A DNA stretch of 64,000 nucleotides from a virus (IMGVR_UViG_2799112923_000001); one strand, 5' to 3'; shown: positions 4,300 to 37,285, counted from the stretch's first letter. Notes: a model not told the origin generated them from the letters alone. Made by a program: numbers and translations.

Positions 4300-4653
4300 A
4301 TGACCAGAGAAGAACTTGTAGAAAAATTAAAAACTATTCCTACATATACAGAAATGGAAAAGTATTGTGATTGTGTTTTGATTGCTGATTGTGATAGTTA
4401 CATCACAAAGATTTCTACTGATGGTACATTCTATGTAGCACCAAATTTTGGAATTTTGCTTCGTAAAAATGGCAATCCACAGATTTTAGTGTTAGATGAA
4501 AAATTTGATACAACAGACAGTTTTAATGACTATTATCAGGTTCCAATAACTAACGATAAAGAAGTTAACCACAGATTTGAACAGTTGGTTCAACGAGTTA
4601 AAGAAGTTCGTGAACAACTCAATATAGAAAAAGCAAAGATGGATTTCAAATGA
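4300..4653 (+). CDS. C-terminal DF-motif family protein
   Basis: Ends EQLNIEKAKMDFK*; ATGA overlap with next gene. Confidence 0.75.
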   Translation: MTREELVEKLKTIPTYTEMEKYCDCVLIADCDSYITKISTDGTFYVAPNFGILLRKNGNPQILVLDEKFDTTDSFNDYYQVPITNDKEVNHRFEQLVQRVKEVREQLNIEKAKMDFK

Positions 4654-4988
4654 GCGAACACGAATTAGAAACTCAGGTCAAATGGTTATGGGAACATCAC
4701 CACGAAGATTTCAGTGTTATTATTCATTGGGCAATTATTCAGTCACAGGCTATCATTCACCATTTACCAGGTGAACAATATAGAATTTGCTTTTCCAATG
4801 TTAATAATCAAGTAAAAGCATTTCTACACGCATTGGATATTGAAACTGTTGAAAATTTTGGTCGCATTAATAATACAATGTTTAAATTCACTGAAGAACA
4901 TATTAAACTATTTCGCCAAATTGAAAACCAACTTTCTATACTGAAGGATTTTGATAATGACTTATGTGGAAATGACAGAACTGTTTAA
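4650..4988 (+). CDS. DF-motif family protein (short tail after motif)
   Basis: QLSILKDFD followed by 8-aa tail overlapping next gene. Confidence 0.65.
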   Translation: MSEHELETQVKWLWEHHHEDFSVIIHWAIIQSQAIIHHLPGEQYRICFSNVNNQVKAFLHALDIETVENFGRINNTMFKFTEEHIKLFRQIENQLSILKDFDNDLCGNDRTV

Positions 4989-5253
4989 AAGTCGCAGTTT
5001 AGATTATAGCCCACCACCCCGAGATGGCATGTATTGGGTTTATTATCTTAATGAGCCTTTTTGTGGTGTTGAGAAGCACAGAAAAATAAATCGCAGTGTT
5101 GTATTTTTTCCACATCTTCCTGGTGGTAATTATTACATAAAAGATGTTACAACTGATGATTTGGCTAATCGTATAACAGGATTTATCTTAAAAATCAAAC
5201 AGAAAAAATTGGATGAATCGTTAAAGAAATTAAATTCCGATTTTTGTAAATAA
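4957..5253 (+). CDS. DF-motif family protein
   Basis: Ends LDESLKKLNSDFCK*; last gene before a hairpin/promoter. Confidence 0.75.
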   Translation: MTYVEMTELFKSRSLDYSPPPRDGMYWVYYLNEPFCGVEKHRKINRSVVFFPHLPGGNYYIKDVTTDDLANRITGFILKIKQKKLDESLKKLNSDFCK

Positions 5254-5300
5254 AAAATTACATAACTTGGGTTGCTAAAACCCAGGTTTTTTGTTATATT
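5245..5300 (+). promoter_or_regulatory. Early promoter with operator and overlapping terminator-like hairpin
   Basis: TGTAAA-N6-ATTACA 5245-5262, TTGCTA 5272, N17, TATATT 5295; AACTTGGGTT/AACCCAGGTT stem followed by T-run. Confidence 0.65.
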
Positions 5301-5325
5301 TCAATTATAGTGTGAGGTATTTTTT

Positions 5326-5607
5326 ATGACTGAAGGTGATTTGTTTTTCTTGTGCCATAGTAATAAAATTTATAAAGAAGGTCTTTCTTATAAGTTAGAC
5401 GGGTCTATCTTTATTACAAAAGATTTAAGAAATAATCTTTGTATTACAACTGATTTAACCACAAAAGAAACAAAGAAATGGAAATTGGAAGATTTATCCG
5501 TAGAACAGTTTGAAAAGTATTTAAACAAATTTCTAGGCAGTCATAAGAAATTTCTCAATGAAAAACTAATTGCTGAAGCCAACAAGGATTTTATAGATGA
5601 CATTTGA
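5326..5607 (+). CDS. DF-motif family protein
   Basis: Ends KLIAEANKDFIDDI*. Confidence 0.7.
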   Translation: MTEGDLFFLCHSNKIYKEGLSYKLDGSIFITKDLRNNLCITTDLTTKETKKWKLEDLSVEQFEKYLNKFLGSHKKFLNEKLIAEANKDFIDDI

Positions 5608-34283: not shown

Positions 34284-35210
34284 TGGCTAAAATTCCATCT
34301 ACTTTGTTTGTGGAAAAATATCGCCCACAAACTGTAAAAGATATTGTACTACCAAAAGAATTTGCGAAGTATTTCAACAACATAGTAAAGACCCGGAGAC
34401 ATTCCTAATCTATTACTTTGTTCACCAACACCTGGTACAGGTAAGACAACTATCGCAAAGGCATTGGTACACGATTTAGGTGCGGAATACATTTACATAA
34501 ACGCATCTAGTGAAAACTCTATTGATGTTATCCGTAATCAAATTGCCGAGTTCGCACAAACTATGAGTTTCTCAGGCGGACAGAAAGTGGTAATTCTTGA
34601 TGAAGCAGATGGTTTGACACCACAATTCCAAAAGGCTTTAAGAGCATTTATTGAAGAATATCAAGCCAACTGTAGATTTATTTTGACCTGTAACTATTTG
34701 GGCAAGATTATTCCTGCTTTAAGACAAGGTAGAACCCAGGTCTTTGATTTCAATATGGCAAAATTCAAAGATGAATTGCTACCAACAATTATCAAGCGAA
34801 TTACTGGCATTTTGAAATTTGAAAAAATTGAATTTGATAATGATGTAATAGCACCATTATGTGAAGCATATTTCCCATCATTAAGACAAATTATCGCAAC
34901 TATTCAGCAGTATGCTCAGGTCTATGGAAAGATTGACCAGGGTATTCTTTCATTCAAGGATGTTGGTGATGATTTGGCTAATATGATTGTTGAAAAGAAG
35001 AAGTTAGTAGATATACGAAACTACATTGAACAACAGGGTATGAGTTACGCAGATTTCTTTAAGAATTTGTTTGAACATTTACCAACAAAGACAAAGAATC
35101 CTGCCCAGGTTATCCTTTTACTAGCTGAATATGAATTCCGTTGTGGAACATCTACTGACCCAACATTACAAATGGCAGCTTGTATATTGGAGTTAATGGG
35201 ATGCGTATAG
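34283..35210 (+). CDS. gp44: Sliding-clamp loader large subunit (T4 gp44/RFC-like); needs +1 shift at CGG 34394
   Basis: FVEKYRPQTV in frame 0; GDIPNLLLCSPTPGTGKTT, YINAS, VILDEADGL and CRFILTCN in +1 frame; about 308 aa joined. Confidence 0.9.
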
Positions 35211-35482
35211 TAAGAGATAGCAGTATTAGTTCAATGAAGGATTTTGAAAGTCCTTTATCTATTTTGTTTAGCAAACAGTCAATTCATGCGAAATCAAGAC
35301 GCATAAGTTCAAGTTGGACATTAGAAGCCTGTAACGATATGAAGTCAATGCATGGTGTAGATTTAATGAATTCAATGATTCAAAGTCTTCAGTACGAAAT
35401 GGAGTCGGAAATTGACAAAGAAATCATTAATCACATTATGAATAAGCAACGATTTAATTTCATAAAAGAAATGGTGTTTTAA
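35201..35482 (+). CDS. Mini-protein with gp23 central-segment similarity
   Basis: MRIVRDSSISSMKD leader; KQSIHAKSRRISSSWTLEACNDMKSMHGVD...EIDKEII vs gp23 KQVIEAKSRQLKAAYSIELAQDLRAVHGMD...EINREVV. Confidence 0.7.
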   Translation: MRIVRDSSISSMKDFESPLSILFSKQSIHAKSRRISSSWTLEACNDMKSMHGVDLMNSMIQSLQYEMESEIDKEIINHIMNKQRFNFIKEMVF

Positions 35483-36148
35483 TGTTTGATTCACAGAAAT
35501 TATCTTTTGAGAATTTTGTAATGGGCTATAAACATCGGAGTTTATATGTTCAGCTCAGACTCATGCCGAGTTTGCCAGGACTATAAACACGATATAGAAT
35601 GGATTAACAACTGCTATCTATATTTCGTGGATGTTAATACTGACCAAGAAAAATCTATATTAGCCAAACTCATTGATAGAACTGCTTTACCAGCCACTGT
35701 AGCATATTTGGATAACGAAATTAAGTTTATTCGTATGGGGCATGTGTTTGAAGCAGACTGGATTGAGTTCCACGAATTTCTAAAGCAGTTTGGTGATAAA
35801 CCATTACCAAAAGACGAGATTAGACGCAGAATAGAAAAGCAGAAAAATCGTTGTTTATTGACCTATTACATATTCCCACAGGATATTCCTGATGAAAAAA
35901 GAAATGAACTAATGAATAAGGCAAATACATATAATGAATTGCCTATTGATGTAGATAGATTCTGCGTTGGTGTAGATAATAAAGAAAGGGAACGAATGTT
36001 AGAAGGTTCCTATCATTTTGCGAAACTCATATTATGGAAAGACCCAAATGCGAAAGTATCAAATTACAGTCCATTTGCGAATGACATAATTCTAGGATAT
36101 ACCAACGCAAACCAGTCCATCAAGTTTATACAGAGAGATGTGAAATGA
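35482..36148 (+). CDS. Thioredoxin-fold protein with C-terminal extension; needs +1 shift at CGG 35536
   Basis: TAATG-coupled ATG 35482; H / GVYMFSSDSCRVC CxxC, LPATVAYLDNEIKFIRMG. Confidence 0.7.
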
Positions 36149-36909
36149 TACAAATTATCCCAGTGAAAGAACGATTAGAAGGGCAAGTAGATACTGACAA
36201 GATTTTCTACATTCCCAATGAGATTAAGTTAAAGAAGAAAACTATTGTATTGGATTCAATGGCATTAAAATACAATTATGCGATTGAAAACATTGTATTA
36301 AAGAATGATGACCCGAACATTTGTTTTAGACACGATGATAGTGAAATTAGAACTCCACTAGATGTTTGTGAATATAAATTAAACAATTTGTTCGCAGATG
36401 GTAGTATTGGTTGTGCTGGGTTAATTGGAACAATTCAATTAGAACAAAGTTGTACTTGGTGGGGCCCTAATCGTGAATTGAATGGTGCTGGATATATTAT
36501 CCAGGGCGGTGTTCGTCAAAAGCAAGATGACAAAGGACAACCAATGAAAGATGAAAATGGTAATCCAATTCTTGAAAAGATTGAATATGCTATGCCTGAT
36601 TTCCCTGGTGTACACGATTATATGGCAACTATTGACGGTTGTTGTATGTTCTTTCCTAGACGAGTATTTGAGCAGGGATTGAGATTTGATACAAACTTAA
36701 AAGAATTTCATTTTTACGATTGTGATATATGCTTACAGACATTGGAACGCAAACAGAAAGTTGCGACTATTGACATTGTTGTAAAGCATCAAAGTAGTGG
36801 TGTTCCATCAAAGAATTTTAATGATTTAAGATTGGTATTCTTTAACAAATGGAACAAGAAAGTTCATGGAGAATGGCCGATTTCAAAAGTATCAAAATTC
36901 TATGAATAA
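36145..36909 (+). CDS. Glycosyltransferase family 2-like protein
   Basis: KYNYAI, CFRHDD, GCAGLIG, TIDGCCM, FHFYDCDICLQ, VKHQSSG. Confidence 0.75.
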   Translation: MIQIIPVKERLEGQVDTDKIFYIPNEIKLKKKTIVLDSMALKYNYAIENIVLKNDDPNICFRHDDSEIRTPLDVCEYKLNNLFADGSIGCAGLIGTIQLEQSCTWWGPNRELNGAGYIIQGGVRQKQDDKGQPMKDENGNPILEKIEYAMPDFPGVHDYMATIDGCCMFFPRRVFEQGLRFDTNLKEFHFYDCDICLQTLERKQKVATIDIVVKHQSSGVPSKNFNDLRLVFFNKWNKKVHGEWPISKVSKFYE

Positions 36910-37285
36910 ATTAAACGCACAGCAAATCGTAGAAGATTTCAAGAATAATTATTTTGATATTAATTTTGACATTAAATATCAGGATAACATTCCAGCAGAA
37001 TTAGTGGGATTTTATAAGAAGTCCCACATTTTTGTGTTCAGTTTTTTTGATAAAACGGTTTCATTTAATAATTTGTATCAAAACTATGCTTACCAAAAGT
37101 ATATTAGACCAACATTGATGTATAATGAAAGGTTCTTTATAGAATCGGAAGGTGTGAAATTTGACTATAATCTACACAGGTCATTATTACTAAAAATTAT
37201 TAACAAAGTCGTGATTGGGTTTAAAAAATACTATATTTGTAATAAAGAGGAAGAAATAAATGAAGACTTCAAATGCCGAACCTGA
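36902..37285 (+). CDS. DF-motif family protein
   Basis: Ends EEEINEDFKCRT*. Confidence 0.65.
   Translation: MNKLNAQQIVEDFKNNYFDINFDIKYQDNIPAELVGFYKKSHIFVFSFFDKTVSFNNLYQNYAYQKYIRPTLMYNERFFIESEGVKFDYNLHRSLLLKIINKVVIGFKKYYICNKEEEINEDFKCRT

Follow-up and report, generated by a model that had tools for sequence, protein, structure and literature searches.

We analysed a 64,000-nucleotide stretch of viral DNA (IMGVR_UViG_2799112923_000001), called the window below, in which 49 small and otherwise very different proteins end in the same short helical peptide, closed by Asp-Phe. Selection holds this C-terminal tail constant as a peptide, and at about even odds (a probability of roughly 0.5) we propose that it links a wide range of binder domains to a single partner common to all. 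The window comes from an uncultivated rumen T4-like phage of roughly 400 kb. Related ENA contigs of 395-407 kb, whose gene content we read by walking along them, encode UvsX, a gp41-type helicase, gp32, RNase H, a B-family polymerase and a T4-type clamp, and these replication genes agree with the T4-like assignment.

Among the 126 open reading frames (ORFs) of at least 50 residues in the window, DF-x(0-3) closes 45, where the frequency of the DF dipeptide in the protein cores would predict about 1.7. The strict motif K-x10-[IALVM]-x2-[DE]-F, lying at most 12 residues from the C-terminus, is found in 47 ORFs, all between positions 4300 and 37285; elsewhere it has three internal matches and three in the three reverse frames. 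Two further proteins without the Lys (12262-12546 and 22519-22809) bring the family to 49 members of 67-194 residues, or 49 of the 80 ORFs in this interval. A first-pass annotation of the window had described about 47 small proteins with a C-terminal helix ending in Asp-Phe, arranged in runs at 4.3-8.8, 10.6-15.8, 18.7-23.1 and 24.1-25.7 kb with further scattered genes; both the family and its layout are borne out (Table 1).

The consensus tail is 16 residues long, K-x7-L-x2-I-x2-D-F, and typically 0-2 residues follow it, mostly a single one past Phe. When the proteins are aligned on Asp, hydrophobic residues occupy positions -6 (L/I) and -3 (I/A/L/V/M), and Lys stands exactly 14 residues ahead of Asp in 42 of 45 proteins, a feature beyond what had been described at first pass. 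The distance from D-F to the stop is 0 to 4 residues, and extends to 7 and 11 (11 residues in 4650-4988) in members that are stable across strains. An arrest peptide or recognition of the C-terminal carboxylate (PDZ, degron) was set aside because this distance varies, and a membrane-targeting helix because the tail is highly charged, with just three consistently hydrophobic positions. The gene at 3764-4285, methyltransferase-like by its PHROG matches, was rejected as a member: it ends in GDFFE, without a helix and without Lys at -14. A search of the ESM Atlas by the features of the tail gave no usable match.

The tail is conserved at the level of amino acids. Orthologues at 98-61% identity occur on contigs of up to 407 kb. 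In 69 orthologous pairs, D and F are 100% conserved, while their codons differ silently in 16% (D) and 33% (F) of cases, compared with 27-33% in the cores. Lys -14 is kept in 88% of cases, and its codons show silent differences in 23%; the remaining tail positions are 33-59% identical, similar to the cores. Both codons of each invariant residue are in use, as previously annotated (GAT 41 and GAC 4 for Asp, TTT 29 and TTC 16 for Phe), and the Lys is written AAA 32 times and AAG 11 times. Measured against the closest relative by the Nei-Gojobori method, the synonymous rate (dS) is 0.141 in tails and 0.158 in cores, and the ratio of nonsynonymous to synonymous change (dN/dS) is 0.29 in tails, 0.41 in cores and 0.235 in neighbouring genes outside the family. 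By these measures the tail genes are real genes under somewhat relaxed purifying selection, with no suppression of silent change in the tail.

The motif also persists where no coupling to a downstream gene requires it. Genes preceding gaps of 48-198 nt keep the tail (those ending at 5253, 8779, 12213, 15779, 19183, 23060 and 28831), and D-F is invariant in coupled and uncoupled genes alike, including at least 12 uncoupled ones and the orthologues of last-in-operon genes. Orthologues of 18707-19183 retain D-F down to 36% identity. Likewise, 12 orthologues of 11833-12213 (61-98% identity) keep K110, D124 and F125, and 20 orthologues of 20565-20987 keep K123, D137 and F138. Since D and F do not vary despite silent codon changes, and dS is equal in tail and core, selection acts on the tail as a peptide. 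The first-pass annotation had claimed as much, pointing to last-in-operon genes, and had let the claim depend on whether amino-acid or nucleotide conservation prevails across orthologues; it is the peptide level that does.

What precedes the tail is far more variable. With tails trimmed off, the cores of the window's members give no BLAST matches with one another. Across all loci, 204 distinct tail proteins fall into 81 clusters, and when the 30 larger clusters are compared by hhalign, none of the 435 profile pairs reaches 80% probability. The cores are thus unalignable, as annotated, by BLAST within the window and by profile-profile comparison across loci. In a Pfam scan of 41 members, the only matches were single-member ones to DUF641, TMEM120A-B and AbiJ_NTD4 (E 0.001-0.004), none above chance; Pfam and PHROG together gave the same 41 members merely scattered single-member matches (E 0.0005-0.008).

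Two members were modelled with AlphaFold2. The model of 11833-12213, with a predicted local distance difference test score (pLDDT) of 92, is an alpha-beta5-alpha sandwich whose last helix spans residues 85-125. That of 20565-20987 (pLDDT 65) has seven strands (beta7-alpha), no N-terminal helix and a helix at 104-139, so that the terminal helix measures 36-41 residues in the two models. Fold neighbours of the first are weak (Z at most 5.4) and comprise frataxin, YjbR/DUF419, type III chaperones, immunity proteins and the MotA C-terminal domain (CTD). Its Foldseek matches (E 0.095 to MotA CTD, 0.27 to YjbR) and ESM Atlas neighbours (template-modelling score 0.49-0.54) are weak as well; YbjN-type proteins are also among its fold neighbours. 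The second model has weak PH-like matches. Foldseek searches of PDB, AFDB and BFVD found no match at E 0.001 or better. Altogether, the cores evolve fast, vary widely and are rich in beta structure; the proteins end in one long helix and, to judge from the models, probably belong to more than one fold.

The far end of that helix seems to stand clear of the domain. In 74 cluster representatives, Gly and Pro are nearly absent from residues -20 to 0 before D-F, and positions -17 to -1, Lys -14 aside, are 14-46% basic. The proximal hydrophobic positions (-19, -15 and -12) are out of phase with the distal ones, where only -6, -3 and +1 are consistently hydrophobic and -10 and -7 are mostly polar. 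This phase shift fits a helix that is packed against its own domain at the start and free at the end; alignments of known folds to the 11833-12213 model also give out around residues 105-115 of the 126. Lys, the distal L/I/F patch and Asp would then lie on the part of the helix that projects beyond the domain, and their surface could form a common interaction module through which the proteins reach one shared partner, probably one other than the sliding clamp.

Several points weigh against this proposal. The step to a common partner leans on conservation and predicted geometry, and the projection of the tail on helix length and the end points of fold alignments. That the cores adopt several folds is not secure, because the second model is of low confidence. 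Moreover, an N-terminal MT-x-EEF...YG signature occurs in about a third to half of the members, and a large part of the set may for this reason be one diverged family that simply inherited its tail. Self-association and inherited structure are serious rivals to a common partner.

In the first of these, the tail is an element by which the proteins bind each other. The projecting helices would pair, perhaps in antiparallel fashion so that Lys -14 of one chain meets Asp 0 and Phe +1 of its mate, giving homodimers, or heterodimers with other family members, and no separate hub. Charged anchors 14 residues, or about four turns, apart would suit a symmetric antiparallel pair, the predicted helix is long and continuous, and type III secretion chaperones and YbjN-type proteins are among the weak fold neighbours. 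A coiled coil would, however, need positions -10 and -7, precisely those that are mostly polar, leaving it only -6, -3 and +1. We regard such pairing as unlikely, though it has the best claim among the alternatives.

A lower probability still attaches to the second, in which the proteins form a single, very diverged paralogous family that has passed the tail down as part of its structure, such as a helix cap or a clasp with the conserved N-terminal helix, without any common external partner. Tandem arrays are typical of duplication; Met-Thr opens 24 of the 49 members but 5 of the 79 non-members; roughly one member in three has the N-terminal helix and, after it, YG[LM]; and a MAFFT alignment contains a near-invariant core Tyr. 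Yet members without the N-terminal signature keep the tail, profile comparisons show no homology among cores, and on the models a cap placed so far out, at the tip of a 36-41-residue helix, would have nothing of its own core to cover.

The sliding clamp, one of the hubs suggested at first pass, is an improbable receptor. In T4, the C-termini of gp43, gp55 and gp33 dock on the clamp, and clamp ligands share interchangeable C-terminal motifs (PMC2988020). The tail resembles these epitopes in being a short motif at the extreme C-terminus of unrelated proteins of a T4-type phage and in containing Asp-Phe, as do the clamp-type tails of this clade itself; on the T4 side, too, one receptor reads many clients. 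The T4 ligands, though, have hydrophobic, acidic C-termini on flexible, unstructured linkers of variable length (PMC2988020), a composition that the basic tail, with its fixed Lys spacing and predicted continuous helix, does not share. Nor are T4 epitopes carried by some 50 proteins per window; there they number a handful. The clade's own proteins make the same point. Its polymerase (L024:6100-8799) ends in SSGLDDFFV, three methyltransferases in G[DE]FFE and another, in L020, in TDFFE, and a gp33-sized protein between helicase and gp32 in SILDFLN. In these different tails D-F is followed by F or L and is borne on Gly/Ser linkers, whereas just 2 of 187 family proteins have F or L after D-F, the tail has no second hydrophobic residue after Phe, and the 20 residues before D-F form a Lys-rich helix without Gly or Pro, with Lys at -14. 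The tail and the polymerase C-terminus are not the same motif: as the family shares only D-F with the clamp-type tails, and in a Lys-rich helix, the clamp (L019:5366-6094, phrog_223, in a relative) is disfavoured as its receptor. The methyltransferase endings are close to the GLDDFFV of the polymerase, and these enzymes may ride the clamp. Another hub named at first pass, the ClpP-type protease of the window, is assigned by PHROG to head maturation.

The codons of the tail end carry a second message in coupled genes. In 28 such genes codon -1 is GAG or AAG 15 times and GAA or AAA 3 times, although genome-wide 21.5% of Glu and Lys codons end in G (p 4e-8). Uncoupled genes have G-ending and A-ending codons in this place at a ratio of 2:6. 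With a G in this place, xxG-GAT yields AGGA, followed after 6 nt by the ATG of the ATGA overlap that starts the next gene. The wobble choice at codon -1 thus creates, in coupled genes alone, a Shine-Dalgarno sequence for the gene that follows.

The same junction is also where genes are exchanged. Three events could be resolved to the base against the closest relative: one inserted gene, one four-gene indel and one replacement. All three start and stop in the junction GAGGAYTTY-NN-ATGAC or in the first codons, MT-x-EE. The close relative L005 lacks the four genes at 5920-7131, and the breakpoints of this difference lie in the tail/start junction. In place of 15235-15495 it has another tail-bearing gene, unrelated to it, with one breakpoint after MTYEE and one at the D-F codons. 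The tail-end/start junction is the microhomology for gain, loss and replacement of whole genes between strains.

That the motif is only the by-product of such a DNA or RNA signal (Shine-Dalgarno, spacer and start, or recombination site), the peptide being irrelevant, is very improbable and already largely refuted: the junction [GA]A[GA]-GAT-TTY-NN-ATGA does make a good cassette of this kind, codon -1 is G-biased in coupled genes and breakpoints fall at the junction, but D-F stays unchanged even in uncoupled genes (at least 12), which lack the -1 bias, the wobble positions of K, D and F vary near background with dS equal in tail and core, and neither a Lys 42 nt upstream nor hydrophobic residues at -6 and -3 have a place in a Shine-Dalgarno signal.

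Promoters mark the borders of the arrays. Four of the five best sigma70-type matches on the + strand lie in gaps between arrays, which account for 4.9% of the sequence (p ~3e-5), and the -35 boxes of these gap promoters sit inside stem-loops followed by T-runs. This is the design of promoter-early stem-loops (PeSL), which shuffle cassettes of ORFans in the hyperplastic regions of T4-type phages (PMC2839356; PMC4122927), and for that reason the array genes are probably expressed early. Like PeSL cassettes, those of the window are ORFan arrays in plastic T4-type regions, considered non-essential, with a sigma70-like promoter and stem-loop at array borders (8911-8949, 12226-12261, 23083-23121 and 5264-5300) and short conserved sequences as modular exchange sites. 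Unlike them, the three resolved breakpoints within arrays fall in coding DNA, in the last codons of the tail and the start and first codons of the next gene, and the exchange sequence is constrained as a peptide as well.

Alongside the proposed shared partner, the array genes are probably made early from sigma70-type promoter/stem-loop elements, the tail codons also supply the Shine-Dalgarno sequence of the next gene, and the junction of tail end and MT-x-EEF start serves as the site of cassette exchange. A broader and distinctly more tentative picture, which we think possible at rather less than even odds, is that of an early-expressed library of about 100 interchangeable binder domains, plugged by the same helix into one hub, as a phage counterpart of the substrate-receptor families of eukaryotic viruses. 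Integrase-free cassette exchange would renew this library, at a site written into the codons that encode the docking helix and begin the following gene.

For the poxvirus ankyrin/PRANC proteins, to which the tail had been likened at first pass, only the design principle carries over: a large virus with many copies of proteins that join a variable binding part to an unchanging C-terminal module. Pfam finds no ankyrin repeats and no PRANC or F-box match in 41 members, none of which matches any family above chance; the constant part is a 16-residue helix and not a domain, and no Skp1-like partner is known. Bacillus phage G carries a zinc-ribbon family of roughly 35 copies, a lineage-specific expansion in a jumbo phage that has been called unprecedented (PMC7824862). 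Here, too, tens of small paralogue-like genes crowd one huge phage genome, and their 49 copies in 33 kb exceed that number (PMC7824862). In contrast to the zinc ribbons, the terminal helix alone is shared and the cores are not detectably homologous.

The family is restricted to one clade. A profile of 41 members retrieved 21 true relatives among 1.84 billion representatives, all of them tail-bearing and none better than E 1e-10. The tail with Lys -14 is present in a 313-kb relative with a 63% identical clamp, and was not seen in 20 kb of a relative with 54% clamp identity and 45% GC. A limited literature search found no description of the family.

Table 1 Tail genes, array promoters and related genes. 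Positions refer to the window unless a contig is named; starts are those of successive genes.
Feature	Position	Strand	Details
Non-member, methyltransferase-like	3764-4285	+	ends G-D-F-F-E; PHROG methyltransferase matches; no Lys -14
Run of 3 tail genes	4300-5253	+	4300-4653, 4650-4988, 4951-5253; strict motif; L005 orthologues 80-89% identity
Stem-loop and T-run overlapping weaker promoter	5264-5300	+	TTGCTA-17-TATATT (with TG); before 11-gene array
Run of 11 coupled tail genes	5326-8779	+	starts 5326, 5597, 5920, 6306, 6596, 6850, 7128, 7526, 7839, 8167, 8504; strict motif
PeSL-like promoter	8911-8949	+	TTGACA-17-TATATT; -35 box inside 14-bp stem-loop; upstream of next gene block
Run of 4 tail genes	10593-12213	+	starts 10593, 10969, 11339, 11833; 11833-12213 is the modelled member
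PeSL-like promoter and stem-loop	12226-12261	+	directly before 10-gene array; 11/12 consensus matches
Run of 10 tail genes	12262-15779	+	starts 12262, 12488, 12877, 13151, 13603, 13920, 14330, 14654, 15235, 15495
Single tail gene, 158 residues	18707-19183	+	last in operon; terminator hairpin 19184-19209
Sigma70-type promoter	19847-19875	+	TTGCCA-17-TATAAT; before 19.9 kb array
Run of 3 tail genes	19907-20987	+	starts 19907, 20269, 20565; 20565-20987 is the second modelled member
Run of 6 tail genes	21419-23060	+	starts 21419, 21676, 21872, 22295, 22519, 22806; 22519 without Lys -14
PeSL-like promoter and stem-loop	23083-23121	+	after 21.4-23.1 kb array
4 tail genes	24114-25726	+	24114-24386, 24758-25090, 25077-25415, 25412-25726; non-member at 24383-24748
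Variant member ending E-F-E-D	27155-27514	+	Glu for Asp; Lys -14, Leu -6 and Ile -3 kept
2 tail genes	28038-28831	+	28038-28382, 28382-28831; strict motif
2 tail genes	32246-32775	+	32246-32536, 32536-32775; strict motif
Single tail gene, 132 residues	33565-33963	+	strict motif
Member with 4 residues past D-F	36866-37285	+	strict motif
Methyltransferases with polymerase-like tails	3764-4285; L023:1-558, 2613-3203; L020:14819-15472		

The variant ending with Glu in place of Asp (Table 1) is not isolated, as its library orthologue P0036 likewise ends in E-F. All long ORFs of the window lie on the + strand, at a GC content of ~32%. Besides the tail genes they encode the ClpP-type head-maturation protease, a clamp-loader subunit, a giant protein with cadherin repeats and many ORFans. 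A scan of IMG/VR found no close relatives of the window, and deposited phage genomes gave no nucleotide or protein match to it. Promoters of the sigma70 type and Shine-Dalgarno sequences indicate a bacterial host.

Between ORFan arrays, at 15832-17231, sit genes for a PQ-loop protein and an MFS transporter; transporters are unusual phage cargo. Compared with three relatives, both genes show 90-99% identity, whereas tail genes at syntenic places drop to 30-50% or are absent. In the clamp-loader gene (34284-35210, phrog_168) the N-terminal Walker A part is not in frame; it is encoded in another frame by the 180 nt upstream, with CGG at the switch point. The protein with several cadherin-type repeats, of 1600 residues (40992-45794), is perhaps a fibre or adhesin. 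At 53683-54189 and 58445-58882, one protein ends with a run of 15 Lys/Arg and another has a strongly acidic, Asp/Glu-rich C-terminus.

Among the relatives, the 313-kb contig L020 carries two adjacent sliding-clamp paralogues (9998-10720 and 10765-11544). One clamp of that cluster (P0064) is labelled by its source as belonging to a Methanobrevibacter metagenome-assembled genome, probably a binning artefact. The replication genes of the 407-kb relative adjoin one for a xylanase of glycoside hydrolase family 10 that carries a CBM6 module (L022:717-2525), apparently a plant-fibre auxiliary gene of a rumen phage.

In huge phages the majority of genes are ORFans that offer no handle for study; here one short, invariant peptide marks about half of the genes in 33 kb. 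If the tail does lead to one shared partner, capturing its binder could assign about a hundred uncharacterised proteins to a single pathway. Overlapping codes are, moreover, packed unusually densely at the junction, where 15-20 nt give an essential peptide end, the next gene's start with its ribosome-binding site, and the microhomology for exchange. These overlapping codes may explain how the library turns over so fast without loss of expression or of the tag.

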